Source of the DNA: an uncultured Gammaproteobacteria bacterium
GTDB lineage: Bacteria > Patescibacteriota > Microgenomatia > Levybacterales > GWA1-39-11
DNA: 64,000 nucleotides
Assembly (NCBI GenBank): GCA_964409875.1
Contig: CAYPEN010000002.1
Location: 1,067-65,066 of the forward strand
Direction of reading: 5' to 3'
This document shows, one piece after another, positions 1 through 60,581 of this stretch. The number at the start of each line of letters is the position of its first letter. The stretch's first letter is position 1. The notes below the pieces were generated by a model. The model had not been told where the DNA came from. It saw only the letters and a list, made by a program, of their open reading frames with translations, and ran no database searches. The position numbers were made by a program, and so were the translations under genes.

Positions 1-215
1 TTGTGATGCTCCGCATCCTCTACGCGCCGCGCTTCAGCGATGACGCTGTCGCACTGCTCGCAGGGAAGGTGGATCTCGACCGTCGCACGAGCGCGCTCGT
101 TGATGATCCTACCCAAGGCGTAATCCTTGAGCAGAAGGTTGCTGGGGTGACCACTGTCTGGCATTTCTTTACCCCTCCTTGGGGCTTTGCGGATTCCACC
201 GCGGGACTAGTCTTC

Positions 216-590
216 TCAGGCAACAGCCCTTGAAGATGCACGCTTGGTCGGCCTCCTTCGGCGCGATTTCTCACGCCGCAATTGTTCCGACCGCTGCTTG
301 GCCTTGCAAAAGTCATCGAGATACATCCACTCAGTGGCTCGAAGACCTTTGCGACCTTCGGAAACCCGCAAGCGGATCTCCAAGCCTCGGGCCGCATCCC
401 GTTGACTTGCTGAACGGGAGTACGCAACTCCGTTTGGGGTGGGGTACGGCTGAACTCGCTGGTTCTCGTGGAGGAAAATCCGCTCCACGGTTCCGTCGCC
501 TCGGGCGAACCCGAAGACAGAATCGAACCAGACTATCTGACCCACGATGAATGCCATACCATTCTCCTCGAACAGTGTCTCTCCCGGCAT
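216..590 (-). CDS. hypothetical protein (about 124 aa)
   Basis: High-GC ORF. I chose the internal ATG at 588-590 (MPGETLFEENG...), which sits 13 nt after the stop of the upstream gene. The frame choice is uncertain in this high-GC region. Confidence 0.3.
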   Translation of the reverse strand: MPGETLFEENGMAFIVGQIVWFDSVFGFARGDGTVERIFLHENQRVQPYPTPNGVAYSRSASQRDAARGLEIRLRVSEGRKGLRATEWMYLDDFCKAKQRSEQLRREKSRRRRPTKRASSRAVA

Positions 591-603
591 AACCGGGCCG
601 ATG

Positions 604-1101
604 TTATCCCACCGATACACTGGTAGGGGTTTGCGCGAGCTGGACGGAAACCGTCCCAACTCTGCACTCCCCCTCAGGGTATCGAAGCGAGATAGTGTCG
701 TTAAGCACTCCGAGTGCAGCCTGGGCGTAATCCCCAACCGCCTCATTGAGCGCTTGTATGGTCGGAGGGTAATGGTCCGCAAAACGGAGCACTCCCTGCC
801 AGAACGTTGGGGAGACCACGGTGTCATAAAAGGCACCTATCTCCTTTGTGATAATGACTTCAAGCGAGACTTTGTAGAGTTCTCCTCCATGGAGGACATC
901 AACATCTACTTGTTCGCTTCTTGGGGAAGGCGCTAACTCGGCCGCTGATGCTATCGGTCCTACTGTTCTATTGGTAAAGCCTATCAGCAGAATACCGACC
1001 AAAGCGATGAAAGCTAGCACTCCCATGCCTGTATTTAGCTGATGAAGGAAAACAACACCAGCCATACCAAGTACGAAAAGAACGACTTGCCTACTGGGCA
1101 T
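604..1101 (-). CDS. hypothetical membrane protein (165 aa)
   Basis: N-terminal hydrophobic helices. A strong SD (caaaggagggtgcgATG) lies directly upstream, and an AT-rich promoter-like unit lies further upstream at 1130-1420. Confidence 0.5.
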   Translation of the reverse strand: MPSRQVVLFVLGMAGVVFLHQLNTGMGVLAFIALVGILLIGFTNRTVGPIASAAELAPSPRSEQVDVDVLHGGELYKVSLEVIITKEIGAFYDTVVSPTFWQGVLRFADHYPPTIQALNEAVGDYAQAALGVLNDTISLRYPEGECRVGTVSVQLAQTPTSVSVG

Positions 1102-1411
1102 CGCACCCTCCTTTGTTTTTGTTTCCGCAATGACGAAGACAACAGATATATCTTCACCATAGCGGAAACAATACTTAGGCTGCGCTCAGTCTATCAATTT
1201 ACTCACTTGTTCGTAAAATCTCTCACAGATTGTTAAAGTGCAAAGCACTTCAAGCTATGCTTAAAGTGCACTACTTCAAGCTATGCTTAATGTGCAAGAT
1301 AATGTACCGCAAACGTGCTTCAGTTTGCGCGAATTAATGCCAGAGCATTATATCATTTGGATAAATTGGAAACAATTATTATGGGTCTTTATTGCTGGAA
1401 GTGAATTTTTG

Positions 1412-1507
1412 TGGTTAGCCCCACCCCTTCTATTTGAAGAGGTAGGGCCGTTGGTGTCCTTGGTTTGCTTTTATCAAACCTTAGACGCTTGCGAAAGATT
1501 GGTCGCT
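1412..1507. repeat. Repeat A copy 1 (about 90 bp with internal hairpin ccccacccc...ggtagggc); likely terminator
   Basis: About 90% identical to 3075-3166. It sits downstream (3') of the minus-strand gene set 1978->1571. Confidence 0.6.
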
Positions 1508-1570
1508 AATGTTGGTTCATTGCTATCCAGGCAACGGCCACGAGTGTAACAACGGTGACAAACACCCGGC

Positions 1571-1756
1571 TCAAGAATTTGGAGCCTGGGGCTTTTCTTG
1601 TCCGTCATCTTCAACCCACTGGGCCTGGATTCGGGCGACGGCCTCATCCCCCCAGTCGGGGGAACATGACTCGTCGAAATTGTTGTACAGGATGTACTCC
1701 AGCTCGCTGGCTGAAGGTGGTTGAACGCTGGGAGTTGCTCTGGGTGCGCTCGCCAT
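1571..1756 (-). CDS. hypothetical small acidic protein (61 aa)
   Basis: ORF directly downstream of, and translationally coupled to, 1760..1978. Confidence 0.3.
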   Translation of the reverse strand: MASAPRATPSVQPPSASELEYILYNNFDESCSPDWGDEAVARIQAQWVEDDGQEKPQAPNS

Positions 1757-1759
1757 CTT

Positions 1760-1978
1760 CTAGCGGTTATCCCACCAGATCTTGGCAAGCACTGCTGTTG
1801 CAGGCAGATACACCAGTACCGCTGCCAACATGAACCAGACAGACCTCCAGAGCCGTTTTCGCTCGGCCTCCTCTGCTGCTATCATCTTCCTGGAATCTCG
1901 GAAGGCCAGCGCCGTGACGACAATGATCCCAAGACCCAAGAGGAGAATGGACACTCCCCGGTCATCGATATGTACCAT
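1760..1978 (-). CDS. hypothetical small membrane protein (72 aa, 2 predicted TM)
   Basis: Strong SD (aaggagg) 7 nt upstream of the ATG, and two hydrophobic segments. Confidence 0.5.
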   Translation of the reverse strand: MVHIDDRGVSILLLGLGIIVVTALAFRDSRKMIAAEEAERKRLWRSVWFMLAAVLVYLPATAVLAKIWWDNR

Positions 1979-2066
1979 GTGATACGCCCCTCCTTGAGGC
2001 GTTTTCGTATTGTGAGCTCAGTTCGAATTGACGAACCCGATGTTGCCAAAGCAGAGCTGAAAAGCT

Positions 2067-2303
2067 CTACTCGCCCTCTTCTTCTGAACCCTGGTGAGGG
2101 TTCCTTTTCCGCTCGATGAATTCGGTGACACGCTCGAAAGCGCGTAGAACATCCTGTGCGATACGCGCCAGGTCTGTAAGGTCTTTTCCTGCAGTGTGGG
2201 CCGTATCAACGATGATGTGAACACGACCAAAGCGCCGCGGAACGGCACTCTCACCGCGGGAACGGGCAACCTGGTCCCGAATTGAGTTGAGATCCATTTT
2301 CAC
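2067..2303 (-). CDS. hypothetical protein (78 aa)
   Basis: SD (gaggag) upstream. Coding-like composition. Confidence 0.45.
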   Translation of the reverse strand: MKMDLNSIRDQVARSRGESAVPRRFGRVHIIVDTAHTAGKDLTDLARIAQDVLRAFERVTEFIERKRNPHQGSEEEGE

Positions 2304-2307
2304 TCCT

Positions 2308-2709
2308 CTAGACTACAGGTGTGTCGGTAGTTGCCGACCGCGCTTGCCGTTGTTCGAACTTGAGGACGTATTTGTCCCAGAGGGACTTTATGGTCCAAGG
2401 CGAGGCTTTGTACTTGCCGTTTTGTTGAGCATGCAAGTCAAAGTGCAACACCAAATCGCACACGACACGGGGGAACCAAAATGTGGCCTCATCAATCGAG
2501 GCAACGCGATAGCTCACCCTACCTTTGAAGATGCAAACCATCTTAAAGGTGTCAAAGTGGAAAAAGATGTCTTGTCCATGAGTGAGCTCATAGAGCTCGG
2601 TGTTGTTGGGTGGCCGGATAAATCCGAACCTCCCGTAGTAGTGGACGGCTTCTACCGGTGCCTCCGCCCCTCTTAGAATTTTCATCCATACCTCTTGGCT
2701 CATGACCAA
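2308..2709 (-). CDS. cold-shock-domain-like (OB-fold) protein, paralog of 4371..4772
   Basis: The motif YGRFGFIRPP...GQDIFFHFDTF resembles the CSD consensus KGFGFI..G.DVFVHF. It is about 35% identical to the product of 4371..4772. Confidence 0.5.
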   Translation of the reverse strand: MVMSQEVWMKILRGAEAPVEAVHYYGRFGFIRPPNNTELYELTHGQDIFFHFDTFKMVCIFKGRVSYRVASIDEATFWFPRVVCDLVLHFDLHAQQNGKYKASPWTIKSLWDKYVLKFEQRQARSATTDTPVV

Positions 2710-2830
2710 TACTCACCCACAATCGCTTGCAGATGGCAACCAAACTACTAACCAATAACTTATAGCTACTAGCTAATAATGTTGTTGCCACCTGCAAAAC
2801 TTCGAAAAGTTTGAAACAAACTTTTCTCAA
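2708..2830. repeat. Repeat B copy 1 (about 120 bp, low GC) at the 5' end of a promoter-like unit
   Basis: Near-identical to 4801-4922 (aaccaaactactaaccaataacttatagctactagctaataatgttgttgccacctgcaa...). It sits immediately upstream of the CSD-like gene start. Confidence 0.65.
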
Positions 2831-3074
2831 AATGTGTTTTATGGCACTTACTTTAGCAAATGCCAGCGATTTTGCTACGCAAAATCTTTCGCAAGCTGTA
2901 AAAGAGCGTTTGCAGGGATTTGCACGCTAATTCGCAAATCTTTCAAACACAAGGGAAAATTATAACAGAACCGCAAATTCAAAGCAAATACTATAGGGCA
3001 AAAAATATGCAAGGCGAAAATTTTTACAAAAAAAGGATTGTTTGAGTGAAGATAACTGATGTATATGTAGGGAA

Positions 3075-3166
3075 TAGCCCCACCCCTTCTGTTTGAAGAG
3101 GTGGGGCCGTTGGTGTCCTTAGTTTTATTACAAAACCATGGACGCTTGCGAAAGATCTAGTCGTCA
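3075..3166. repeat. Repeat A copy 2 (hairpin-containing, terminator-like)
   Basis: Matches 1412-1507. It is immediately downstream of the minus-strand gene 3157..3447. Confidence 0.6.
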
Positions 3167-3447
3167 GACTGGGGATAGCGAGGCCGTTCTCCGGCGAGAA
3201 ACGCCTCGTAGGAGACAAACTCACCGACTGGCCCGATGTTGCTGAAGATGCGCGACGTTGCGTACACCTTCTCGATCCCAACAGCTGGTTTCCTGCCCGT
3301 AAAAGGCGTGTACTCGATGGTAGTCCTGCCTTCTCCAAGGCAATCGCGGCATACGACGCCGACACCTTTCGGTTCGGCGTAACCGCGATAGACCCCTGTA
3401 CCGCCACAAGGGCGGCACTCGACTTCGAGCTTGACTTTGTCTGTCAT
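3157..3447 (-). CDS. zinc-ribbon protein with two CxxCxGxG motifs (DnaJ-type zinc-finger-like)
   Basis: Contains CRPCGGTG and CRDCLGEG. An SD lies upstream. Confidence 0.5.
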   Translation of the reverse strand: MTDKVKLEVECRPCGGTGVYRGYAEPKGVGVVCRDCLGEGRTTIEYTPFTGRKPAVGIEKVYATSRIFSNIGPVGEFVSYEAFLAGERPRYPQSDD

Positions 3448-3477
3448 GCTTACCTTTCTGCTTTCTCCAGGACTGGA

Positions 3478-4038
3478 CTACGCCTTGGGGCCGATTTTAC
3501 CCGCCGACTGGCGGTACAGCGGAGCGACCTGCAGGATTTGACCTGATTGCGTTCCGTTAATCACAAGTGTCGCACTCGGTGCGGTGTAGCTTCCGAAATA
3601 ACTCTCAAGAAGCGCAATCGCCACCGAATAGAACTCGTCGTCTGTCTTGTAGCCGCTGGGCTTGCTGAACAAGGCGCCGGCAAGCTTCGTCCCCATAGTC
3701 TGTATCTGGTTGCTCGCGCCGGCAGGATCGGTGAAACATCCCATGACGCGGATGCCGATCACCGGATCGGGTGCCCCCTTCTCGTGGTACTCAGTCCCCG
3801 TGGGGAAGAGCGCGTCGAAAAGGACTATGACTGCCCCACCGGTGCAGCGGACACTCCGCTGTCCCGAAGGAACTGTTGAGCGTGGAATAACAGTTGGACT
3901 TTGCACAGGTTGGATAGGACCAACGGGTGCTGAGAGGGTTGGTACCGGCGTTACTGCTGGTGTCGGTTTTTCCGCTCTGTCACCGCATCCTACGGCAACA
4001 ACGGCCACCATCAAGGCGGCCACGATAACGACTTTCAT
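3478..4038 (-). CDS. putative lipoprotein (186 aa)
   Basis: Signal peptide MKVVIVAALMVAVVAVGC with a lipobox Cys. SD ggagagg upstream. Confidence 0.55.
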   Translation of the reverse strand: MKVVIVAALMVAVVAVGCGDRAEKPTPAVTPVPTLSAPVGPIQPVQSPTVIPRSTVPSGQRSVRCTGGAVIVLFDALFPTGTEYHEKGAPDPVIGIRVMGCFTDPAGASNQIQTMGTKLAGALFSKPSGYKTDDEFYSVAIALLESYFGSYTAPSATLVINGTQSGQILQVAPLYRQSAGKIGPKA

Positions 4039-4107
4039 GTGTATCCTCTCCAGTTGGGTTCGTGCCGAAAACCTCGGTCAGGTCCCCCGAGGGGGTCGTA
4101 GCCGAAG

Positions 4108-4375
4108 CTAAGCTGTTGCGAGCTGGCGAGCTGGCTCGCCCAGGAGACGCGCGTAGTAGCGCTCCTCGATCTTTTTGGCCACTGCCTCCATCGCCTTGAT
4201 GAGGTCGTGGCCGGACAGCACCTGCACGATGAGCCTGGTACCTTGCCAGAACTTGTGTTCGATGGAGACTTCTTGGCCCTCCGCCATCCTGGCGGTGTAG
4301 GTGAAGATGTCGTCCCGGATCTGAGCGGCCACCCGCAGTGCGAATGGAAGCTCGTCGTTGGTGTTGATGATCATC
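4108..4375 (-). CDS. hypothetical protein (89 aa)
   Basis: I chose the internal ATG (MIINTNDELPF...) because it has a strong SD (aaaggag) 7 nt upstream. Confidence 0.45.
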
Positions 4376-4772
4376 GTGAAGCTCCTTTGATTTCGGTGTG
4401 GGGTTGAGTTGATGGCTGGCTGTAGAGACGTGTCCATTCGAGGACCGCGTCATCCCAGAAGGGTTTGGGGCACCATTTCTGTGCCCTGAATCCCTTTGTT
4501 GTCCTTTGGAGTTCGAATGCGATTTCCTTCCCCCGCTTGAGGAAGGTTTCCGCCTTTTCGATCTCTTTGGGAGTTGGTGTTTCGGTTCCGAACTCTACTC
4601 CTCCGGCTGTTATAACCGGCAGAAAGAGAGCGTCCAAGTGCAGGAGGATGTCCTGCCCCTGGGTAAGCCTTGCGGCTTGGGAGCCCTTCGGAGGATGGAG
4701 AAATCCATACCTCCTTTCTTCCCGGCGGAAATATGTATCCACCGGAGCGCTTAGCGGAGTCGCTAAACTCAC
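4371..4772 (-). CDS. cold-shock-domain-like protein, paralog of 2308..2709
   Basis: RYGFLHPPKGS...GQDILLHLDALF. Homologous to the 2308..2709 product. Confidence 0.5.
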   Translation of the reverse strand: MSLATPLSAPVDTYFRREERRYGFLHPPKGSQAARLTQGQDILLHLDALFLPVITAGGVEFGTETPTPKEIEKAETFLKRGKEIAFELQRTTKGFRAQKWCPKPFWDDAVLEWTRLYSQPSTQPHTEIKGASR

Positions 4773-4800
4773 CTGCCTACCTACCTGATTGCCTTTCGGC

Positions 4801-4922
4801 GATACTCATCCACAATCACTTGCAGATGGCAACCAAACTACTAACCAATAACTTATAGCTACTAGCTAATAATGTTGTTGCCACCTGCAATACTTCGAAA
4901 AGTTTGAAATAAAATTCTCTCA
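4801..4922. repeat. Repeat B copy 2
   Basis: Near-identical to 2708-2830. It is followed by a promoter-like AT-rich unit homologous to 2830-3075 and 1130-1410. Confidence 0.65.
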
Positions 4923-5560
4923 TAAGGTATCTTGTGGTCTTCGCAATAAATTGTTCAGCCCAAAGATTTTCCTTGCATGCTCGTAAAAAATCTAGCATGC
5001 GACAGTTGTCGTATCGAAGATTTCTCACTTCGTTCAAAATCTTTCGCAAGTTGTTAAAGTGCAAAACAAAGCCAAAAGTATTTTTGTGCTTCAAGCTTTG
5101 TATAATTTTCTTTCTTTGCCCTTTCAAAACATGCAATACGTTTTTTCGAGGCAAAAACAGACAGAAAGTATACCAAAAAACAAGAGGAAATGCAAATACT
5201 ATGGGTTATATTTTATGTGTATTTTTGTGCTACAATCACAACTATGGAAAGAGTTGAATTGCCATCAATTGTCCAGGAGGCAAGCAAACAAATTATATTG
5301 TTTGCTGGTATAGCAGTACGACTTGCGGTATGTCCTGGAGATGATATAGCCCTCGTAAGTGGCACATTTGCAGCCGGTACCGGCCGTGACAATGGGGTCA
5401 TGAGGCAATGATGCCTACTCCACTTGAATTGGACTTAGCGGATAAAAGAAACAGGCGGTTGCCAAAAAGTCTTCGCTAGCCTCAGCCGAGATAGTCAGAC
5501 CTCGCTTAACGTCTCTATATCATAGAATTAATTGCAGCAAAGCTGTGATAACACGATGTA

Positions 5561-6550
5561 TCACGCGGCATTAAGACGGGAAAGGAAGGTGTTGTTTGCG
5601 TGTGCAACCACATTTGAAACAGCAGTCGGATACAATCCTCTATCAAGCATCCCATCCACCCATCGTTCAAAAACATCAACCGTAGCCTGGCGATAATGTG
5701 CCAGTATAATAGCACCCCTTGGAACATTCAAAGGCATGTCTTCAATATTTGCATACCAATTGAGTGGCAAAAAACCCATTTGCTCATTCCAGTCAGTTGT
5801 ATACTCACTAAAAGCTCCTCCGGGAGGCCTCACATACGGCTTGGTTGTCTGATTGAATTTTTCGACCAACCAATCCTCTGCTGCATATAAATCTTCTTTA
5901 AAAACATCCCATGTGGGAGGCACCCCTGGCACCGGTGAATTACGCTGGTCGCGGTGCGTTTCGGTATGATTACCGTATTCGACTATTTCAGAATCCGCCA
6001 ACATTTGCACCATATCGGGATACGCTTTACGCTGTTGACCTTTCATAAAATCAGTAAAGGTTATTCCCTTTTTTTGGGCAATCGCAAGTATGGTTTTTAT
6101 CGCCTGTTTGTCAAATCCATCATCAATGGTGAGGGCAACGAGCGGAGCATCCGTTTCTATCACTCGTAGTGGTTCATTAGTGCCTCGAGGGGTCTTTGTC
6201 AAATTTCTCATCTGCTCGTAGGTATATTCTGGCTTGCGAGCAATAAACTTAGTTTCTTTTCTAACCTCTTTTTTTGTCGGCTGTACAATTTCTTCTCCCC
6301 TGGCAATTCCGGGAATAACTAGTTGATGCTTTTGAGGCTGATCAACCACCGGAGTCGCTTCAGCACCCTGTTGCAAGGAATTCAATCCAGTTTTGATTTG
6401 AAACAACCGCTCTTCCGGGCTCAACGAATAGAGGCTTGCTCTTTGAGCTCTCTTACGAGCGGGTTCTTTGCTGGTTGCAATACCGATAGCAGCTGCAATG
6501 CCTCCTAGGGCAACTCTCCCAAATTTGCCTCTGTCTATTCGTCTTTCCAT
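5561..6550 (-). CDS. polysaccharide deacetylase (NodB-homology domain), N-terminally anchored
   Basis: Contains TIDDGFD, HTETHRD and an N-terminal hydrophobic segment. The start is set at ATG 6548-6550 (MERRIDRG) because the longer ORF-track frame runs through the tRNA gene. Confidence 0.8.
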   Translation of the reverse strand: MERRIDRGKFGRVALGGIAAAIGIATSKEPARKRAQRASLYSLSPEERLFQIKTGLNSLQQGAEATPVVDQPQKHQLVIPGIARGEEIVQPTKKEVRKETKFIARKPEYTYEQMRNLTKTPRGTNEPLRVIETDAPLVALTIDDGFDKQAIKTILAIAQKKGITFTDFMKGQQRKAYPDMVQMLADSEIVEYGNHTETHRDQRNSPVPGVPPTWDVFKEDLYAAEDWLVEKFNQTTKPYVRPPGGAFSEYTTDWNEQMGFLPLNWYANIEDMPLNVPRGAIILAHYRQATVDVFERWVDGMLDRGLYPTAVSNVVAHANNTFLSRLNAA

Positions 6551-6685: not shown

Positions 6686-6800
6686 ATAACTCAAATCTGG
6701 GGTGGCAAGCGGAGGGGGACCCCCGTCGAGCGCCCGCAACCTGAGCTTGCGAATGGTGAGGATGTCGGACGGGGAGGAGCGCAGACAGGACCCCATCGTC
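6686..6800. repeat. GC-rich element copy 1 (about 110 nt), immediately 5' of tRNA-Thr
   Basis: About 70% identical to 10612-10720 and 28697-28822. It shares the blocks ggggtggc..cgactggg/ggaggggg..ccc and gagga..gacaggacc. Confidence 0.6.
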
Positions 6801-7018
6801 AATCTTCCATACCATATTTTATATTTCCATGAGGCTACTTTTCAATCTTAAACGCCTTATTTTTCACGGAATCGCAATTTGTAACACTATTATAAACCAA
6901 AAACAAACACTTTTATGATTTTTAATTGCACAAACAGCGCTAAATACATCAATATATATCATTTGAAGCTGGGCAATATTTTCGTCTTTGATCACAATAA
7001 GTGCCCAAAGCCACAAAA

Positions 7019-8333: not shown

Positions 8334-8340
8334 GAACTGA

Positions 8341-8360
8341 GCCCGCCATGAAGGCGGGCC
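8341..8360. terminator. GC hairpin gcccgcc-atgaa-ggcgggc
   Basis: 7-bp GC stem directly after the uppP stop. It is also the left boundary of a high-GC island. Confidence 0.6.
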
Positions 8361-8377
8361 CGTAGTGTCGAACGTGC

Positions 8378-8905
8378 TCAGAATGTCCAGTTGAGCCGAC
8401 CGCCATGCTCCTGCAGGAGCTTGACGATGTTAGCCCGATTGGGGTTGGCTCGAGCTTGGACCTTGTTCACGACCCGGATAAGGAACTCCCGAACGACTTC
8501 TTCGTCCGAGGCCTCAGAAAGACCGGAGCCGCCAAGCGATATCCCGGCCATGAACACTCCGCCGAACCAGCCGACCGCACCGATGGGAAGTACGGCTGGA
8601 CGACGAGCCCAAACCTGCGAAAGGGTTTGCTGGAAACGGTGTGTCAGCTCCGCCTTCGCCCGGGCGTTGTTCCGGAATCGCGAAGCGAGGTCGCTGTTAC
8701 CGACCTGCTTCTCCCAGAGAAATGCGCTCTCCCATGCTTCCTGCATGAGCAAGGACGTTAAACGCTCGTATGTGAGCGTCGGATTGACGAGGGAGAGGTG
8801 GAAGCCGTCCCGCTCCTGCGCTTTCATCAGATCGCGCAGCATCGGTTCAACCTCCACGAAAGCTGCTTCGCAGTCCTCGGGTGTCAGGAAAAACGGTTTG
8901 TCCAA
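8378..8905 (-). CDS. hypothetical protein (175 aa) in a high-GC island
   Basis: TTG start with SD agaaaggata upstream. The overlapping plus-strand ORF is Arg/Ser-rich and looks like an off-frame artefact. Confidence 0.4.
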   Translation of the reverse strand: MDKPFFLTPEDCEAAFVEVEPMLRDLMKAQERDGFHLSLVNPTLTYERLTSLLMQEAWESAFLWEKQVGNSDLASRFRNNARAKAELTHRFQQTLSQVWARRPAVLPIGAVGWFGGVFMAGISLGGSGLSEASDEEVVREFLIRVVNKVQARANPNRANIVKLLQEHGGRLNWTF

Positions 8906-9016
8906 GATTTATCCTTTCTGTTAGTTGGGCTTGTCCGAAGGCTTCGGACACGAGCACGGCTTCCGCCGCCGGACAATTTGCCGTTGTTATCCCTCGCTAT
9001 CGCGAGGCTGGTCGAG

Positions 9017-9466
9017 TCACGCTCGTCGGCGAGCGTGGGTAGGAAGCGCGATTCTGGGATGGCGAATGTAGCATTCGCAACCCGTGTGCATATCGCGCAG
9101 CGCAAAAGCGACGTGGGCCGTATAGACGGGCCCGTCCGCCTCGGGAAGGATGATGACCGGCTCGACACTTCCGGTCTTTTCAACCTCACCGTCTCGCGGG
9201 TCGCTTTTGGCTGTCCAGGAGAGACTTACGACGAGCTCACGCCCATTAAAGCCTATCTCCCGGATTTCTCCCCACAGGTCACCGATGCGCTTTGGGCGCC
9301 GAACCTGCAGGAGCATGCCGGAAAGTTCCCGGCACGCAACGAAGTCTGCCCAGGGTATCGCAGTGAACACATGTCCTCCTGTTATACCCCGCCTCACAAT
9401 TTCCGTATAAGAAACTCTGAGGCAAGGTAAACAGAAAGTGTTTTTGCACGTTCTGTTAAAGAGCAA
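9017..9466 (-). CDS. hypothetical protein (high-GC island)
   Basis: The most protein-like frame in this stretch. The start is uncertain. Confidence 0.25.
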   Translation of the reverse strand: MLFNRTCKNTFCLPCLRVSYTEIVRRGITGGHVFTAIPWADFVACRELSGMLLQVRRPKRIGDLWGEIREIGFNGRELVVSLSWTAKSDPRDGEVEKTGSVEPVIILPEADGPVYTAHVAFALRDMHTGCECYIRHPRIALPTHARRRA

Positions 9467-9790
9467 ATCGTGAGTCCGGCATGCTGTTGCCAGACAACAA
9501 CTTACTCAGCAATTATATCAAGTGTGAAGCTAATTTCAATACTATAAGTTAAAAACCGTGAAGTTAATTGCCACGCTTCAGCCTGTGTATAATTTATTAC
9601 ATAATTTTCATTGCGTTTACATAGCAGTTTGGTAATTCTGTTACATGTCTAGTCTTGATGGAGTTTATTTAGCTGAAGAACACCCCGTAGATGAGGCGTT
9701 GGGATGCATGGTTCCGATTGCTCTGGCGATAGCCGGGCTTTTATTTTTTTTAACGAAACTCATTGCTTTTTAAGTATATTTGCCTCCTAT

Positions 9791-9842: not shown

Positions 9843-9950
9843 GTGAAGCGACTGAATAGGAGCGGAACAAAAACTCTTTACCATTTTTCAGGAACTTTTT
9901 AAAAAAGTTCCGCATACAATTTTGAAAAGAGGTTTACATCCCTTTTTGTT
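9843..9950. repeat. Hairpin-GCATACAAT element copy 2 (longer unit gtgaagcgactgaataggagcgg...ggaactttttaaaaaagttccgcatacaat)
   Basis: About 80% identical to 11526-11640. Contains a perfect palindrome. Confidence 0.6.
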
Positions 9951-10215
9951 GAATGCCTAAAAGATAAAGAACTGCTTCTTTCTTATATCTTCTATCCCCT
10001 CGGGAGTTTATGCGGATAGCGGGTAACTTACCTCTTTTCCCCCATCTTTTAATGGTTAAGGGACTGACCCGCAATAATTCGGCAACTTCACGGACTGTTA
10101 GAAGGTCTGGGAGAGATTCGATTGATATATTTTGATTAGCCATTTTCTGCCTTAAATTAACACTATCACTATCAAATGTATATTCAGAGTAGCAAAGAAT
10201 ATCATACCTTGTCAA
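9934..10215 (-). CDS. excisionase-family helix-turn-helix DNA-binding protein
   Basis: LLTVREVAELLRVSPLTIKRWGKRGKLPAIRI matches the Xis/MerR-type HTH pattern. Confidence 0.65.
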   Translation of the reverse strand: MTRYDILCYSEYTFDSDSVNLRQKMANQNISIESLPDLLTVREVAELLRVSPLTIKRWGKRGKLPAIRINSRGDRRYKKEAVLYLLGIQQKGM

Positions 10216-10343: not shown

Positions 10344-11228
10344 CTAAGAAAAACGCTCTCTTAGAACTGCATATGCAAATCTTGGCAACGCAAGTTGTCT
10401 TTTAATTCTCCACGGCTGCATTGCAAGTCGGAATGCCCACTCCATCCCCATATCTCTCATAAACTTTGGTGCTCGTCTCACTTTCCCCGATACATAATCA
10501 AAAGCACCCCCTACTCCCATAGCAACTGTTACATCGATACTATCAAGATTTTTTGCAATCCACTCCTCCTGCTTTGGCGCACCGAAGGCAACAAAAAGGA
10601 TATCTATATGGGGTCTGGTAAGGGGTGGCTCGACTGGGGGACCCCCATTGTCCACCCGCAACCCAAACGAAGCGCGTGGTGAGGATGACGAATGGGGGTG
10701 AGGAGAGACAGGACCCCAAACTTCATTCTTCCACTTTTCACCTACAAAAACTACTCTAAGCCCCGGGTACTTTTCACGCAAGCACTCCGAAGCCTTCTCT
10801 GCTACACCCCTACTACCCCCTAAAAAGCCTATGTTAATAGGACGATTTGATGCTACAGCACATATTTTTTCCATTAGATCGGTACCAGTTATTCGTCCTA
10901 TAATTTTCTTTTTGAGTATCCTACCGGCTATGAGTACACCTATCCCATCGGGAAGGCTGAGGGTAGCACCATTTAGAACGTCTTGGAACCTCTTTGAGCG
11001 TGTGCCTAACATCAAAATTTCGGGATTTGGTGTTACTATATAGAATTTTTTTGAAGGGTTTTCCAGTCTTTTGAAGATATACTCTAAGACTTCACTTTCG
11101 GAAGCTGTCGTTATATCGGTTCCTAATATTTTTACGGAAGGTAAATTTTTTCCCATACTATACACTTTTTCGATTCTTTTCGTATGATTTTTCAAAGCTC
11201 TCTGTTGTTCATTTTTTTTACCCCTCAA
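10344..11228 (-). CDS. WecB/TagA/CpsF-family glycosyltransferase carrying an in-frame GC-rich insertion
   Basis: Contains ILGTDI...IVTPNPE...DGIGV...ILFVAFGAPKQEEWI. The true start may be the internal MGKNLPSVKILG. The insertion lies at 10612-10720. Confidence 0.75.
   Translation of the reverse strand: MRGKKNEQQRALKNHTKRIEKVYSMGKNLPSVKILGTDITTASESEVLEYIFKRLENPSKKFYIVTPNPEILMLGTRSKRFQDVLNGATLSLPDGIGVLIAGRILKKKIIGRITGTDLMEKICAVASNRPINIGFLGGSRGVAEKASECLREKYPGLRVVFVGEKWKNEVWGPVSPHPHSSSSPRASFGLRVDNGGPPVEPPLTRPHIDILFVAFGAPKQEEWIAKNLDSIDVTVAMGVGGAFDYVSGKVRRAPKFMRDMGMEWAFRLAMQPWRIKRQLALPRFAYAVLRERFS
10612..10720. repeat. GC-rich element copy 2, in frame inside the glycosyltransferase CDS
   Basis: Encodes VWGPVSPHPHSSSSPRASFGLRVDNGGPPVEPPLTRPH, placed where TagA homologs have a short acidic helix. 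Confidence 0.6.
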
Positions 11229-14234: not shown

Positions 14235-14266
14235 CCGGGGCGCTGAGTTGTGCTCAAACGCCCCGG
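14235..14266. terminator. GC hairpin ccggggcg...cgccccgg
   Basis: 8-bp GC stem downstream of the minus-strand operon. It is the left boundary of a high-GC island. Confidence 0.5.
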
Positions 14267-14282
14267 AAGGAACAGGTCAGTG

Positions 14283-14699
14283 CTAGCCGTGGCCCTGAAG
14301 GAGGACCTCGTTTTGCATAGCTGCGGCAAAGGCCGGAGTCAGCTGGTCAGGACGGATGTCCACGGGTTCACCCGGATGGTGAACCTCTCCATGCAGCTGA
14401 AGATCCGAACGAAGCCTTGCAAGATCAGCCACAGGCAAACCGAGTGCCGTGGCCGTTTTGGCGTCTTGCCTCTCTCGCGCCCTGCGCTCTCGGCCGTTCA
14501 CCCAGCGGTGAAGCTGGAAGAGCAAAACCTCCGCCTCCCTGAGCTTTTCAGGCTCAAATTGGAGAAGGATTTCGCCTTCCCCGCCGGCCTGCTTGAGCTC
14601 ATCGTTCTCGACTCGGGTCCGAAAACCCTCGTCGCTGTAGATGCGAGCCAGCTGTAGGGCCAGCTCAAGGACGTCTTTGTCAGGAATAATATCAGTCAC
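14283..14699 (-). CDS. hypothetical protein (138 aa, GTG start), high-GC island
   Basis: SD aaggaagagg upstream of the GTG. Confidence 0.45.
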   Translation of the reverse strand: MTDIIPDKDVLELALQLARIYSDEGFRTRVENDELKQAGGEGEILLQFEPEKLREAEVLLFQLHRWVNGRERRARERQDAKTATALGLPVADLARLRSDLQLHGEVHHPGEPVDIRPDQLTPAFAAAMQNEVLLQGHG

Positions 14700-14744
14700 T
14701 CTGCCTCTTCCTTACTGGTGGAAGAACCGGAAGCCGTAGTCGGC

Positions 14745-15065
14745 TTAGTGTTCTTCCATGAGCTGCCGGTCGAGCCGGATTTGCTGCGCCACCCTTCTCT
14801 CGTGCCGTCCTTTTTCAAGAGCACAAACAGCTCCCTCAATGAAGCTCACCACGAAATAAAGGAGAAGTGCCCAAAGGGCTCCTGCCGTAACCCAGAGGAT
14901 TGCGGACGGAAACACAGCCCCACCACTGATAAAAACGCCCGATGTGGCGAGTTGTGGCAGGGTCATCCACCTGATGGTTTTCTGGCCAAGCTTGTAAGCC
15001 TGCCATACTCCCACGAGTGGCAAGGAGAGCACGAAGAGCATCTCCCAGAACGCAAGTTCGCTCAT
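14745..15065 (-). CDS. hypothetical membrane protein (106 aa)
   Basis: Three hydrophobic helices. SD aaaaggaaac upstream. Confidence 0.45.
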   Translation of the reverse strand: MSELAFWEMLFVLSLPLVGVWQAYKLGQKTIRWMTLPQLATSGVFISGGAVFPSAILWVTAGALWALLLYFVVSFIEGAVCALEKGRHERRVAQQIRLDRQLMEEH

Positions 15066-15547
15066 CTTGTTGTTTCCTTTTCGAAGCTGAGGCGCTCAGC
15101 CGTTTCGGGCTGGGTGCCAACGTAGATGGTCATCTTTCCTTGGTAGGAAGGATATGTCTTGACGATGTCCTGAGCGATGGTTGCCGCTTCGGTTTTTACT
15201 TCGAGGGCGCTTTTGAAAGGCGTCACCTCATTGTGTTGATACAGAACTTCCTTGACTTGTTCATAGAACATGTCGAGGGTTTGTGGGGCCACGAACAAAG
15301 CGGGGTCTACACACGCGGTGAAAACCAACCCGGTAACGGTGACATTCTTCCCGTTCCCGCCTGTAACGGTAAAATGAGCATGTTGCAGCTCTTTTTTTAC
15401 CGGTGACAGTTTCTTGCACGACGTAAGTGGCGTGCCGACGGCGATGTACGAGGCCTTTGGAGAACTCGTACTGTGGTCTACGGAGTAGGCCAGGACGACG
15501 GCGCATAACGCCAAAATAATGATGCTGATTGAGATGCGGGGTCCCAT
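15062..15547 (-). CDS. hypothetical secreted protein (161 aa)
   Basis: Start at MGPRISISIIILALCAVVLAYS (signal peptide) with SD gggagaggaaga upstream. Confidence 0.45.
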   Translation of the reverse strand: MGPRISISIIILALCAVVLAYSVDHSTSSPKASYIAVGTPLTSCKKLSPVKKELQHAHFTVTGGNGKNVTVTGLVFTACVDPALFVAPQTLDMFYEQVKEVLYQHNEVTPFKSALEVKTEAATIAQDIVKTYPSYQGKMTIYVGTQPETAERLSFEKETTR

Positions 15548-15816
15548 GTCTTCCTCTCCCTGGAAGTGTCTGGTGCAGGGCATTTCTGTCCTGCGGGTTC
15601 GGATACTGACCTGTTGTTAATGTGCGTGAGCGCAAAACGCGCGCCCAGCATGCAAAAAAACACCAGGCGGCGCAATGCGCCAAACATCAAATTATATCAA
15701 AAAACACAATCCATTTCAAATACTACGGGATAGTATTTGAGGCTGACATATGCACTTGTAAGTTGAATAAAAATACTAAATACTAAAGGTACAACCGTTT
15801 TTAACGGCTTTATTCT

Positions 15817-37582: not shown

Positions 37583-40500
37583 ATGGATATTCTTGAATTA
37601 TTTAAAGAACAACTACTCAAAGACCGCTCTACATCTTCAAAAAGCACATTGAAGAACTATCTCTCTGACGTGCGGCATTTCATCTCCTGGTTTGAAAAAT
37701 CTACACATTCAACTTTTGAGGTGAAAGATATAACACCTGACGTTATTGTTTTGTATGAGCAGTCTTTAGGTGGCCTCATTGAGGATGCAAAACTTAATGT
37801 CGCAACCCAACTCTCCGCTGCCTCCATGAAACGCCATCTTTCTTCCCTCCGCAAATTTTTTGCTCTTCTTGAAAGAGAAGGACACATTTCACACAATCCC
37901 TTTACACAAATTCAACCGGAAGCAAGCGAGGTTCCAACCGACCTTTGGCATCTTAAATCTTTTAAAGACGCACTTCTTCTCCAGAAAGCCTCAAAGATTA
38001 CCGTGAAAAATTATCTCTCGGATATTTCAGGCTTCGCAAAATGGTATGAAGAAACGATATTGCCCGGCCTTGAGAAGCCACTGAGTGCTACGGGTGGTTT
38101 TTATCTTTTGACCCAGGAGATTATTGAAGATTACCGCAAGAGGCTCCTTGAAGTTCAGAATGCCGCCCCAAGAACTGTTAACCGAAAACTATCGGCCCTT
38201 AGGCGCTACCTTAACTTTGTAACGGAGAAAGGGTTTGTAAGTTTAAACGAGCTTAGCATTGATCCGGTAAGAGTCTTTGAAGAGAGAATGACCTCAGTTG
38301 AGAGTCCAAGCGTTGAACTTACTGAACTCCCTGTCGTAACAAAAAAAGAAAAAACCCATTCCAAATTTCCACCCGTACGGTTACTTCAAAAACTTGTTAT
38401 TTTCCCTTATCTTGCTCTTGAGGAGAAGGCCGCAACGTCAATTGCAACTTTCATTTCAGGAAAACCTTTGAATGGTCTTGATAAGCTTCCCCCAAAACTG
38501 GCATCTATTGTTGAAGCAAAGAACGTGCTTCGCGGTAAAACAAATTCAATCAGCAACATTCTAGGTGTACGAAATGTTTCAAAAGAGTTTTATGCGCCGG
38601 ATAAAGTTTCACTTCTGGGAACCCCCCTCTACAAAAGGCTTATTTATCACGCCAAATTTACAAGGCCTAACTGGTACAAAAGATATCACAACTACTCTTT
38701 TGTACACTACGTACACTTTGCCCTCCTTGTGATATTTGCATCGGGCGTCGGTGTTGCCCTCTATCAAAACTTGGTTGCCAAAAAACAAGCGCCAACTTTT
38801 GCTGCAGCGACCGCTCCTCCCAGGATAATTTCCTTTCAAGGAAGGCTTACCGATAACCTCGATAACCCCATAACCTCAACCTCAGCGTTGAGGTTTGCCA
38901 TTTATAATGACGCCTCGGCGTCAGGCGGCGCACTACTCTGGCAGGAGGCTATAACCAATATCACTCCAGACCAAGACGGGATATTTTCAATCCTTCTGGG
39001 GGGTGGTACGCAAATTCCATCTACTGTCTTTACCGATAATTCTCAAATATACCTCGGTGTTACTGTCGGCACTACCTCAGAGCTTTCTCCACGGCAAAGA
39101 ATTGCGAGTGTAGGATATGCAACAAATTCCGAATTTTTGCAGGGTCAGCCTCCGACGACCCAGGCGGGCATTACTTCATTCACAAATGTTATACTTGCTC
39201 TTGACTCTTCAGGGAACCTTACTCTTGCCGATAGTGCAACGACAAATCACACCTTCCAGGTCTCAAACGGCGCATTTAATCTCAAAGGACAAACACTCTA
39301 TCTTACGACCAACTCAGGCTCTGGAGGGAACGTTATTCTTTCTCCTGACGGGTTGGGCAAGATTGATATCCAACGTCCTATTATCAACACTACTACTATG
39401 GGAAACATTGTCCCAGGAGGCGTTGAAGTAAATGATAAGTTTGGTGTTCTTGCTACCGAATCAGCAGTAGCCGCTTTTACCGTTAACAACAACACCTCGG
39501 GTGGAGACATCCTAGCCGCTTCCTCATCTGGCACTACACGCTTTAAGATTGCTAACGACGGGACCCTAACCGATGGCGTGTATAACACCGCCGGCGGAAT
39601 ATTTTACGGTTCAAATACAAACGGAACTTTTGCTCAAACTACTGCCGGCTCCCTAGGACAATGTCTTCAGTCAACCGCAGGTGGGGCTCCTACGTGGAGC
39701 ACGTGCGGAGGCTCTGATTGGAGAACAAATCTTGGAACCCTCTCCCCCAACAACGATACTCTTGACCTTCTCGTTGGCGGAAACACCACAGCGTCTGCTA
39801 AATTTAGATTTGTAAATGTAAATACGGGAACTCCAGTTGCCTCAGTGTCTGCAAATAGCGGCAATAATTCTACTTTTATATCAGGAGATGGAACACTTGG
39901 CACTACTAATCGTGCTACGCTAACTATTGGTAACTCATCAACCTACAATACAACAGGCAACCTCCTCTTTAACCCGAATGGGATTGGAAGAATTGGCATA
40001 GGTACAACTTCTCCGCTAATAGGATTTGATCTTCGTGGAAATTCAGGCACTACTGCAGCAGCCTCAATATCTGCAAATACTTCATTTGCTACGCTTTTGG
40101 TTGACAACTCAGGCTCAGGAGATCTCATTGCGGCAAGCGCTTCAGGTGTACCGAATTTTGTTGTAAAAAATAATGGTGATGTGATTATTGGTCAAGGTGG
40201 CGCAGGAAAATTAACCGCAAGTGTCATCGACCCTTACCTTGTCCAAAATCAGAAAACAACAGGCACTCAAAGTCTTACATTTCAGACAATGGGGGCTACG
40301 AACGCTGACTTTATATTTAAAAACACTTCCACAACCCTATCAACTCTCACTCAAGCAGGACAATTGCAATTGCCGGTTACGGGTTCTACGGGCGGTATAG
40401 TTATCGGCGGAGATACGCAAATATTCAGGGGCGCTGCTGATAGACTGGATGTTGCATCAGGAGACTCATTTAATGTCGTGAATGGAAATCTTCAAATTGG

Positions 40501-56900: not shown

Positions 56901-57280
56901 TTGTTACTACCAGAATCTCTCCATGCAGAAATAAGCAAATTGCTTCCAGGCAAACTTCCCATATAGAAATAAAAGGTATAATACGTGGCAGCTGTGCGCC
57001 CTAAGAATGCACCATTACCATTGGTTGCTAAACCACGAATGGTAACGCCTCCATTTGTTCCACTAGGATTTATGCGAAGTGCATAATTTCCAGTACGCTT
57101 AGTTAATGACTGAATAGAATAAGTTCCATTTGTACTATATAATTCGGAAGAATCACCTGTCTCAAATCCAGTTATATTTAAATAAGCAGCTTCGGATTTT
57201 TGAACGAAGGCGAAACCACTGAAAATAACCAACAGCAAGCTAGCAAGTACTATTTTGTTAATAAATCCTATTTTTTTCAT
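53954..57280 (-). CDS. large secreted adhesin-like protein (1108 aa) with MopE-type metal-binding motifs and Cys-rich C-terminus
   Basis: Signal peptide MKKIGFINKIVLASLLLVIFSGFAFVQKSEA. D-x-D-x-D-G motifs. Shares a domain with the 978-aa protein. Confidence 0.7.
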   Translation of the reverse strand: MKKIGFINKIVLASLLLVIFSGFAFVQKSEAAYLNITGFETGDSSELYSTNGTYSIQSLTKRTGNYALRINPSGTNGGVTIRGLATNGNGAFLGRTAATYYTFYFYMGSLPGSNLLISAWRDSGSNNIASLYVNSSGVLTGFGASGFSANIATLNAGTWYRIEAKIVSNGLSEAKVDGGTPQTWTSYNYTQDQLVLGDPINSYTANWYYDDVAISDSAYPGAGQVNILKPKGAGFAQLWGTGTGTAYNQVNEVPPNGDTTYIRDANTAGNVSTFTVDSSSTAGVSNGIGTVKTLTICKTEAGSSPGTIVRLRTNSPGITNSDTTSSDPGIGAYASLAKLNDTNPNNGSGWTTATLDAIEIGVLNGSTSSTERCTGLYAMVWSTPPAAPTVTTSAASSLTTNSAILNSTVNPNGASTSISYLWGTTPGVACNLQPNTLAGPTGLTGTSNLSGATTQATLPSLSANQTYYFCVMATNANGTRYDTAVLPFTTSATPGAYTYMDAGSALGSGATDCQDDSNGTPCAPTTVNVSAPAYNQTSISWSGTQTGGAVPSITNGYDLLRCTNGSCSPSATLTSTALTSYTDNTVSQTTTYGYAVKAKNAAGAGTASATSYVTTPSSCVNTTVYADNDGDHNGASSTIQFKGSAAGTGYNTGSTASVTINNPAAGVDSGVVLIASITFGGSSIVLTPPAGWNLINRVDNNSPTVSSTAVYYKVAVGGEPASYTWSASPNVTAFAGNIVAYDNVNSSSPVDTSQVTVIGNNNSLQTAFQTSSGITTSYPYELIVVVAGAYRSSGLASWTPPAGMTERADTNNTGGRMVSISDVMQNSAGPTGVKSATLSSSGYGGVIIFGLRSNYATTTLCVANNTPTGPWSMNANDCNDNNINLYQNLNAYVDGDKDGVVGNSATPVCSGGALPAGFNSSPGTDCNDSDATKWQNLSGYQDSDGDGYTTSTTPSNVCSGASLPSGYRATSSGLDCYDGNATANPGYSGSYQTTNRGDGSFDYNCSNSMTSYLGTSANGQFSGYVCAAIVQTSQCVGYDCGPPPNYVGCCGSAFCSSAGNTSCSSTTATTVSCGQTAINGNASCALSGDMCMGSGVVCLSPQGPLGCY

Positions 57281-60580: not shown

Positions 60581-60581
60581 T

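Follow-up and report, generated by a model that had tools for sequence, protein, structure and literature searches.

Do the repeated units near the left end of a 64,000-nucleotide (nt) stretch of contig CAYPEN010000002.1 (assembly GCA_964409875.1) represent the cassettes of an integron, a tandem duplication, or another kind of modular locus? The whole stretch is called the window here. In the first-pass annotation of the window, three AT-rich units were described as the promoters of small minus-strand gene runs closed by hairpin repeats, with paralogous gene content, and an integron-like or a tandemly duplicated accessory locus was proposed. The modular layout was borne out. Three minus-strand modules, named M3, M2 and M1 in the order of transcription (right to left), each consist of an AT-rich promoter/leader unit, two to four small GC-rich genes, and a hairpin-rich 3′ end (Repeat A). 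All genes within positions 1-5250 lie on the minus strand, and the GC content is 0.37, 0.36 and 0.34 for the promoter/leader units versus 0.54-0.58 for the gene runs. The window holds at least five members of this lineage-specific family of small operons: M1 to M3 in tandem, and M4 and M5 as stand-alone modules (Table 1). In each of them, a short sequence in the leader is complementary to a sequence just past the last stop codon, and the two probably pair in the mRNA.

Complementary sequences at the two ends of each module

The leaders carry at least one hairpin and a 12-nt A/U-rich box, GC(A/T)C(A/T)TT(A/T)ACA(A/G). The box was found only five times in the window; every site is on the minus strand and inside a module. 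The 8-14 nt after the box are the reverse complement of a sequence located 0-23 nt past the stop codon of the last gene of the same module. Is this common to the whole family? The complementarity was found in 13 of 13 instances, comprising the five window modules and eight modules in relatives, with at least five different helix sequences among them. In most instances, the 3′ strand begins 0-10 nt past the stop codon, and in one module of a distant relative (L129-C) the distance is 23 nt.

The sequence motifs that the first-pass annotation reported as shared by the AT-rich units are present, being exact in the second and third units but degenerate in the first. One of them (tcgcaag...) is the plus-strand view of GCUUGCGAAAGAU, which lies in the 5′ untranslated region (UTR) directly after the box. 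The exact reverse complement of GCUUGCGAAAGAU, AUCUUUCGCAAGC, is the first part of Repeat A, and the coding part of one module lies between them. The M1 leader has a different sequence, UCUGUGAGAG, at the same place, and its perfect complement CUCUCACAGA is found at the 3′ end of M1 itself, on the same-strain contig L005. Likewise, AACAGGUCAGU of M4 pairs with ACUGACCUGUU, and GAACGUGC of M5 pairs with GCACGUUC. Thus, the helix is CUUGCGAAAGAU in M2 and M3, UCUGUGAGAG in M1, AACAGGUCAGU in M4, and GAACGUGC in M5, each matched by the module's own 3′ end.

Could such matches arise by chance? The longest Watson-Crick run between the 19 nt at the end of the box and the 30 nt from the stop codon was compared with that obtained for random 30-nt windows of the same 64 kb. 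The longest runs are 12 nt for M3, 14 nt for M2, 10 nt for M1, 11 nt for M4, and 8 nt for M5. In 42,268 trials, the run of the module was reached by no random window for M3, M2 and M4, by 14 for M1, and by 287 for M5. Covariation was assessed in an ungapped alignment of 11 instances; win_M5 and L129_B, both of which MAFFT put out of register, were left out. In this alignment, 77.6% of the cells are paired, a fraction raised by the way the 3′ register was picked (see below), versus 23-39% when the partner is slid by 1-3 columns. Both sides change in 12 of the 15 pairs, and the observed values were reached in none of 500 shuffles.

One might explain these matches by plain tandem duplication and divergence, the motifs being the common promoter or operator of one regulator (e.g., the neighbouring Trp-repressor-like protein) and the complementarity being functionless in itself. 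There is clear homology among the units, many modules have the CTTGCGA core, those of the distant L129 included, and a conserved helix-turn-helix (HTH) gene flanks the array in close and distant relatives. However, this leaves unexplained that in M1, M4, M5 and L129-D the two strands were altered in concert to new sequences, that the 3′ copy always follows the last stop codon within 23 nt whatever the last gene is, and that the complementarity persists in stand-alone modules at a distance of 4-10 kb. For most modules, the expectation by chance is less than 1e-4. I consider this explanation highly improbable.

Conservation of the helix in relatives

How well is the helix kept in other genomes? 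The M2 helix of L003, GCUUGCGAAAAUU/AAUUUUCGCAAGC, differs from that of the window by two compensatory changes, while M1 of L003 keeps UCUGUGAGA/UCUCACAGA. In L129, which is from assembly GCA_964557125.1 and whose cold-shock-domain (CSD)-like protein is 30-40% identical, the same design was found in all four modules. The helices are 8, 10, 10 (plus one G.U) and 10 bp long, and one of them, CGAAAGUAGU/ACUACUUUCG, is new. Orthologues of M4 were found in three further lineages (63-72% protein identity) with different last genes; they keep ACAGGUCAGU/ACUGACCUGU beside whichever stop codon is the last one, and in one of them the helix overlaps the stop codon. A metagenome scan for the box followed by CTTGCGA gave two chance matches within coding DNA, in a collection that is not exhaustive (the JGI contig of L001 was not returned).

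Predicted pairing of the mRNA ends

In which molecule would the two strands meet? The strands lie between the predicted promoter and the 3′ hairpins, their sequence varies with the pairing kept, and the 3′ strand is left unpaired in the local folds of Repeat A. These features argue for a base-paired helix rather than for a site recognised by a protein. In L129, the 3′ hairpins have U-tracts, and thus the 3′ strand there should lie within the transcript. When the complete predicted transcripts (1.2-2.1 kb) of the five window modules are folded by minimum free energy (MFE), the whole helix is present in each of them, with 11/11, 8/8, 12/12, 14/14 and 10/10 of the helix pairs. The operon mRNA itself is the simplest carrier of the helix. 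From the observed sequences, positions, conservation and covariation of the complementary strands, I infer that the pairing takes place in RNA and in cis and has an effect. Each operon mRNA probably base-pairs its 5′ and 3′ UTRs, and the pairing is likely to control the stability or processing of the mRNA.

The paired UTRs would close the operon mRNA into a loop. Alternatively, the helix may be a processing stem round each module in a read-through precursor, which is conceivable in the window array since its 3′ hairpins have no U-tracts. The pairing might control the lifetime or processing of the mRNA by, for example, masking the A/U-rich box from an RNase or presenting it to one, in analogy to the hbs and icaR mRNAs described below. 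Coupling to translation can also be imagined: because the 3′ strand begins so close to the last stop codon in most instances, a ribosome terminating there would have to melt the helix.

Several points weigh against UTR pairing in cis. The transcript ends, the read-through and the pairing are all predicted, and the 3′ hairpins of this genome have no U-tracts. The helices are short (8-14 bp) while they enclose 1.1-1.9 kb, and the 8-bp helix of M5 alone is of modest significance (P about 0.007). The 3′ register in the covariation alignment was picked by best pairing, which inflates the paired fraction; the slid controls and the random-window test argue against an artefact, and the latter, being position-blind, is free of that bias. 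The CTTGCGA core is common to three of the four modules of L129, so cross-pairing is possible among them. Thus, the module specificity would not be absolute, and sequence-specific recognition may also act. Finally, G.U and A.C combinations in the helix columns number 7 and 12, respectively, with no strand bias. Thus, covariation alone cannot tell RNA pairing from DNA inverted repeats.

Might the RNA pairing occur in trans? The segment after the stop codon and the Repeat A hairpins could be released as a 3′UTR-derived small RNA (sRNA) that pairs with the 5′UTR of new transcripts. M2 and M3 would then act also on each other, and the outcome would be feedback control of the operons. Repeat A is indeed laid out like such an sRNA, with an unpaired seed of 12-14 nt past the stop codon and two stable hairpins, and both seed and target are common to M2 and M3. 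3′UTR-derived sRNAs are an established class (PMC7821165), and the complementarity and covariation are equally compatible with pairing in cis and in trans. On the other hand, the whole-transcript folds already favour the intramolecular helix, and neither processing sites nor internal promoters are indicated by the evidence. Moreover, the 3′ ends of M4, M5 and the L129 modules are shorter, with a single hairpin, and the complementarity is still kept. Pairing in trans seems rather unlikely.

Pairing in cis has known counterparts. In Bacillus subtilis hbs, the 5′ and 3′UTRs pair over 14 nt and thereby shield the mRNA against RNase Y, and in Staphylococcus aureus icaR, an anti-Shine-Dalgarno sequence in the 3′UTR pairs with the 5′UTR and creates an RNase III substrate (PMC7821165, PMC3868564). 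As in these mRNAs, the link proposed here is a short Watson-Crick helix (about 7-14 nt) between the leader and the 3′UTR of one transcript, with a proposed role in stability or translation. In contrast, hbs and icaR are single genes and single cases in which the pairing is not conserved even among close species, whereas a family of paralogous multi-gene operons has the complementarity at fixed positions (after the box and right past the last stop codon) with covariation. The feature is kept here even in genomes whose proteins are just 30-40% identical. Unlike in icaR, the pairing is not aimed at the Shine-Dalgarno sequence. The processing stems of 16S and 23S rRNA, formed by leader and trailer and cut by RNase III, also consist of complementary segments 1-3 kb apart that bracket a unit in a longer transcript. 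However, at about 20 bp or more, those stems exceed the helices here in length, and they enclose RNA genes, while the modules are protein-coding and have their own promoters.

To my knowledge, the bacterial examples of 5′-3′ UTR pairing are limited to a few single genes with no relation to one another, and even sister species do not share the pairing in those cases. I regard the conserved and covarying complementarity of mRNA ends across an operon family as new, while end pairing itself is known but rare in bacteria. The 13 paralogous or orthologous instances provide a series in which the pairing stays at fixed positions and the sequence changes; such series have established riboswitches and other RNA elements. 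If this is confirmed, end-to-end pairing would count among the heritable, modular features that the design of bacterial operons can include. The modules would then also offer a simple test system for RNase protection, processing of a read-through precursor, or coupling to translation termination.

A more specific model may be put forward tentatively. The mRNA of each module might form a module-specific closed loop, in which an address sequence next to the conserved leader box pairs with the nucleotides right past the last stop codon, and the terminating ribosome reopens the helix. It is also imaginable, if doubtful, that this loop together with the CSD-like (RNA-melting) protein of most modules makes up a self-contained unit of post-transcriptional control that is copied as the module duplicates. 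If true, the closed loop would be a prokaryotic counterpart of mRNA circularisation, unseen before as a conserved, covarying feature of a family.

Gain and loss of modules

How did the array arise? The flanks are the same in the relatives, while the number of modules is two, three or four: L003 has two (M3 is absent), the window and L001 have three, and the distant L129 has four at the syntenic site. In L001, only one of the four M3 proteins is clearly orthologous (62% identity). The homologous promoter units and the variation of module number and content among relatives support the tandemly duplicated accessory locus that had been proposed. Cassette turnover is borne out in part by the comparison of related strains. 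Module number and M3 content do vary, but the single unit of L003 is a hybrid, M3-like upstream of the -10 element and M2-like downstream of it. Thus, modules may have been gained or lost by unequal homologous recombination between promoter units. Judging from these sequences, the array most simply grew and shrank via duplication and unequal homologous recombination of promoter/leader units, not via site-specific cassette capture. Compared with L001, the identity steps from about 78% in M2 to 100% at a point within the conserved Repeat A, and no difference is seen over more than 5 kb from there. The window and L001 are 79-95% identical elsewhere. Thus, the mosaicism is general and not specific to the modules.

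Is the array nevertheless an integron? Integron cassettes are normally promoterless and expressed from a common Pc promoter. An attC site has R″ (RYYYAAC) and R′ (GTTRRRY) cores at a distance of 57-141 nt and folds as a single imperfect hairpin containing extrahelical bases; the sequence at which a cassette begins corresponds to the inverse core of the attC that the cassette carries. A core-motif search of positions 1-5600 found zero RYYYAAC/GTTRRRY pairs at a spacing of 47-157 nt on either strand, and Repeat A forms two independent local hairpins, not one R″-L″/L′-R′ fold. Beyond position 1, where L005 and L001 extend the locus, there is no recombinase; a 68-amino-acid (aa) gene and a hairpin were found there, together with a Trp-repressor-like gene in convergent orientation and a Vut_1 transporter. 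On the other flank are a polysaccharide deacetylase, tRNA-Thr(CGT) and BacA. The first-pass annotation had seen no integrase in the window, and a Pfam scan agrees with it: no integrase or transposase domain was detected in the large open reading frames (ORFs) scanned between 15,817 and 36,874 and between 49,065 and 63,756, or in the module proteins. The large ORFs scanned encode a histidine kinase, ComEC, ComEA, LeuRS, a sulfatase, a leucine-rich-repeat protein and pilins; the scan left out the small ORFs and those of 3725 aa (37,583-48,760, a single plus-strand ORF), 1108 aa (53,954-57,280) and 978 aa (57,752-60,688). As an impression, the gene content resembles that of an uncultivated bacterium with a small genome. 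The integron-like reading was rejected because no recombinase was found on either side or in the ORFs scanned, each module has its own predicted promoter, attC core pairs are absent from positions 1-5600, and Repeat A has two hairpins.

The likeness to integron arrays deserves attention all the same. Both have tandem units of variable genes, a structured repeat at the 3′ ends, a unit number that varies among relatives, and a 5′ boundary sequence complementary to part of the unit's own 3′ element. In contrast to integrons, no integrase or attI was found here, every unit has a promoter, the two hairpins have no R″/R′ cores, the complementary partners are 1.1-1.9 kb apart and not within an attC of 57-141 nt, and the one inferable gain or loss event maps to homologous promoter sequence. 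In practice, an array of variable small genes set between repeated promoter/terminator units can be mistaken for an integron.

A broader view is that the complementary segments act as DNA, that is, as inverted repeats bounding promoterless gene blocks and serving as recombination sites for inversion (on/off) or for excision and exchange of cassettes, with the fixed promoter/leader as a landing pad. Every gene block is bounded by inverted repeats of 8-14 bp, the modules vary among relatives in number and content, the cassette start of integrons follows the same logic, and the G.U/A.C counts are compatible with a repeat at the DNA level. However, the repeats have at least five unrelated sequences, so that the modules lack a common, conserved site for one protein. 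No recombinase, transposase or integrase is found in or beside the array (window, L001, L005 and L129) or in the large ORFs scanned, and attC core pairs are absent from positions 1-5600. The blocks have the same orientation in every contig examined. The one gain or loss junction that can be reconstructed lies between the -35 and -10 elements of the hybrid promoter, not at the repeats, and the identity breakpoint with L001 is 20-30 nt off the repeat. Recombination at these repeats is thus very unlikely.

Other mobile elements were considered as well. An IS200/IS605-like or MIC-like element was suggested by the TTAAC/TTTAC box and the subterminal hairpins, but there is no TnpA or TnpB, the CSD-like proteins are not HUH proteins, and the terminal repeats differ. 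A retron-type a1/a2 pairing was dismissed, there being no reverse transcriptase and 1-2 kb of coding sequence between the repeats. In a promoter-flanking inverton, the 3′ repeat of one module would match the 5′ repeat of the next; instead, M4, M5 and the first modules of arrays match their own 3′ ends, and so does the M1 variant. In addition, a single orientation was seen in all related contigs, no recombinase is nearby, and the repeats differ between modules. A collection of phage DNA gave no match to positions 1-5300. A 69-aa HTH_17/MerR (excisionase-like) protein is encoded directly upstream of M5 (9934-10143, minus strand) and is not accompanied by an integrase.

Promoters, leaders and 3′ ends

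Eight units from the window and relatives were aligned to compare promoters and leaders. All eight have a predicted sigma-70-type promoter with a -35 TTGnnn, a 17-nt spacer and an extended -10 TGnTATAAT. A conserved element, CCCATAGTA, lies just upstream and overlaps the -35 TTGnnn in the aligned units. A Trp-repressor-like HTH protein (E about 1e-5, just under the Pfam cut-off) followed by Vut_1 is encoded downstream of the array in both L005 (2906-3772) and L129 (9707-10279); it is a candidate regulator of the shared promoter element. In L132 (about 3790-4000), an M4 orthologue has the CCCGTAGTATTTG promoter element swapped for an unrelated sequence while the leader, the box and the 5′/3′ complementarity are kept. 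Thus, the promoter and the leader appear to be exchangeable independently.

Repeat B, reported as a 120-bp repeat at the start of two AT-rich units, is real and somewhat longer: positions 2709-2844 and 4802-4937 (136 nt) are 92% identical. It forms a hairpin just upstream of the ribosome-binding site. The outer stem GCAGGUGGC/GCCAUCUGC is kept in relatives, including a G.U pair on the sense strand, while the interior has been swapped at least three times among them with compensatory changes; both features speak for an RNA structure that is specific to this strand. The M1 leader has a counterpart hairpin just before the Shine-Dalgarno sequence, whose interior covaries in L003 and L007. L001, L003 and L007 have another type of interior in M2, whereas that of this strain is of the M3 type, a pattern suggestive of M2 having been converted by M3 at Repeat B. 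The M2 and M3 leaders of this strain also contain extra sequence (about 95 and 170 nt) between the 5′ helix strand and the Repeat B hairpin (2751-2878 and 4938-5038); L001 and L003 lack it in the corresponding modules.

Repeat A is also real. Positions 1416-1466 and 3075-3125 are 94% identical, 1471-1499 and 3128-3156 are 86% identical, and its 46-nt core occurs at only these two sites in 64 kb (chance expectation 0). It is the 3′ end of the upstream module, comprising a single-stranded segment right after the stop codon and then two hairpins with a predicted free energy of about -39 to -41 kcal/mol (z -6 to -7). The hairpin sequences vary between copies and relatives, and the pairing is conserved. 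Repeat A had been called a hairpin terminator. There are in fact two hairpins, but neither is followed by a U-tract in this genome, and thus a terminator function is only presumed. In an Rfam search, tRNA-Thr alone was found at gathering scores; permissive E-values added miRNA-like chance matches on the Repeat B hairpin.

Table 1. Positions of module features in the window (L005 coordinates where stated).
Module	Feature	Positions	Strand	Details
M3	AT-rich unit	5205-4773	-	
M3	Promoter	5167..5205	-	CCCATAGTATTTG (5205-5193, containing -35 TTGCAT), 17-nt spacer, extended -10 TGGTATACT (5175-5167)
M3	Box and 5′ helix strand	5039..5062	-	box GCACTTTAACAA (5062-5051), then strand CTTGCGAAAGAT (5050-5039)
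M3	Repeat B 5′UTR hairpin	4820..4890	-	outer stem GCAGGUGGC/GCCAUCUGC, ~32 bp in total, just upstream of ribosome-binding site
M3	Genes	3157..4772	-	CSD-like 133 aa (4772-4371), 88 aa (4374-4108), 186-aa putative lipoprotein (4038-3478), 96-aa Cys-rich zinc-ribbon-like protein (3447-3157)
M3	3′ helix strand	3145..3156	-	ATCTTTCGCAAG, begins directly after stop TAG (3159-3157)
M3	Repeat A copy 2 (3′UTR)	3076..3143	-	hairpin 1 (3143-3115), GC-rich 14-bp hairpin 2 (3108-3076)
M2	AT-rich unit	2997-2686	-	
M2	Promoter	2959..2997	-	CCTATAGTATTTG (2997-2985), extended -10 TGTTATAAT (2967-2959)
M2	Box and 5′ helix strand	2883..2907	-	box GCTCTTTTACAG (2907-2896), strand GCTTGCGAAAGATT (2896-2883)
M2	Repeat B 5′UTR hairpin	2727..2797	-	~32 bp, precedes ribosome-binding site
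M2	Genes	1571..2685	-	CSD-like 125 aa (2685-2308), 76 aa (2297-2067), 72-aa membrane protein (1978-1760), fourth gene (1756-1571)
M2	3′ helix strand	1487..1500	-	AATCTTTCGCAAGC
M2	Repeat A copy 1 (3′UTR)	1417..1486	-	hairpin 1 (1486-1456), hairpin 2 (1449-1417)
M1	AT-rich unit	1385-1102	-	
M1	Promoter	1347..1385	-	CCCATAATAATTG (1385-1373), TGATATAAT (1355-1347)
M1	Box and 5′ helix strand	1220..1241	-	box GCACTTTAACAA (1241-1230), strand TCTGTGAGAG (1229-1220)
M1	5′UTR hairpin	1119..1171	-	TTGTTTCCGC...GCGGAAACAA, just before Shine-Dalgarno
M1	Genes	1..1101	-	165-aa membrane-anchored protein (1101-604), 113-aa CSD-like (557-216), 68-aa gene continuing beyond window edge
M1	3′ partner	L005 2806-2815		CTCTCACAGA, 7 nt past last M1 stop, just left of window position 1
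M4	Stand-alone module	14235..15729	-	promoter 15729-15691, box 15625-15614, 5′ strand AACAGGTCAGT (15615-15605)
M4	Genes and hairpin		-	genes 15547-15062, 15065-14745, 14699-14283; hairpin 14266-14235
M4	3′ helix strand	14281-14271	-	ACTGACCTGTT, 1 nt past stop
M5	Stand-alone module	8340..9548	-	promoter 9548-9512, box 9464-9453, 5′ strand GAACGTGC (9453-9446)
M5	Genes and 3′ end		-	genes 9370-9017, 8905-8378; 3′ strand GCACGTTC (8377-8370) directly past stop; hairpin 8360-8340

Module genes and proteins

Are the small ORFs genuine genes? Substitutions between orthologues fall mostly at codon position 3 (e.g., 14/17/40 and 10/10/31 for positions 1/2/3), and the indels are multiples of three. 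Thus, the module ORFs are genuine. GC1>GC2<GC3 was found in all module genes, and these three features together rule out the GC-rich blocks as non-coding RNA. The fourth gene of M2 encodes 61 aa here, while its orthologues in L001, L003 and L007 encode 86-87 aa. The missing C-terminal membrane segment can be read in another frame, ending at TAG 1508-1506. This suggests that the gene carries a 1-nt frameshift in this strain and in L005, due to a pseudogene, a sequencing error or slippage.

It had been stated that each gene run opens with a paralogue of one CSD-like protein. This holds for M2 and M3, but M1 opens with the membrane-anchored protein and has the CSD-like gene in second place. The M2 gene, which had been placed at 2308-2709, is real, but its start is most likely ATG 2685, as called in all relatives. 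The first proteins of M2 and M3 (M2g1 and M3g1) are paralogous, with 28% identity and an E-value of 9e-14. An AlphaFold2 model of M2g1 reached pLDDT 93 with an alignment of eight homologues, versus pLDDT 57 with one of five sequences. Its top ~30 Foldseek matches in the PDB are all cold-shock domains, with TM scores of 0.56-0.75 normalised to the target. The cold-shock domain (PF00313) is a five-stranded OB-fold (oligonucleotide/oligosaccharide-binding) barrel with the motifs RNP1 (K/R-G-F-G-F-I) and RNP2 (V-F-V-H-F). The motifs RFGFIRP and DIFFHF of the module protein align with RNP1 and RNP2. The recurring protein is, as modelled, a divergent cold-shock-domain fold, assigned by the model and the fold search for M2g1 and by homology to M2g1 for M3g1 and M1g2. 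In Pfam, M1g2 scored 16 bits (E 0.011) against a cut-off of 27, and M2g1 and M3g1 had no match. Thus, membership in PF00313 is at the fold level only.

The CSD-like family is small, with four clusters among 1.84e9 representatives. It is present in M1, M2, M3 and three of the four L129 modules, and was not found in M4, M5 or L129-A. Pfam and PHROGs searches of the module proteins gave no significant family, only weak zinc-ribbon and CSD matches. The remaining genes are module-specific ORFans, several of which have membrane or signal segments. In having a long structured leader and a short box shared among paralogues, the modules that open with a CSD-like gene resemble the cspA-family mRNAs, which have a cold box and are autoregulated by a CSD protein. 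In contrast to cspA, the module proteins have double the length (113-194 aa) and contain insertions and a C-terminal helix. They are co-transcribed with small genes of no relation to them, their leader box differs from the cold box without any sequence relationship, and pairing with the 3′ end is not part of the cspA system. A role of the CSD-like proteins on these module RNAs is a matter of speculation.

Neighbouring sequences

The polysaccharide deacetylase gene between tRNA-Thr and M3 (5561-6550) is intact in the window and in L003. In L001 (7246-7565), only a 58-aa remnant of its 3′ part is left, and a 160-nt segment from its neighbourhood (window positions 5325-5487) lies on the other side of it. 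Thus, the stretch between the tRNA and the array has been rearranged among close relatives. Just upstream of its tRNA, L001 in addition carries part of the 5′ end of the tRNA as two direct repeats. Beside tRNA-Thr in the window, a GC-rich element of about 96 nt (6714-6809) is 74% identical to positions 10636-10733 inside a WecG-family ORF (10344-11228, minus strand), where it adds a Pro/Ser-rich stretch to the protein. This element could be a small repeated or mobile insert.

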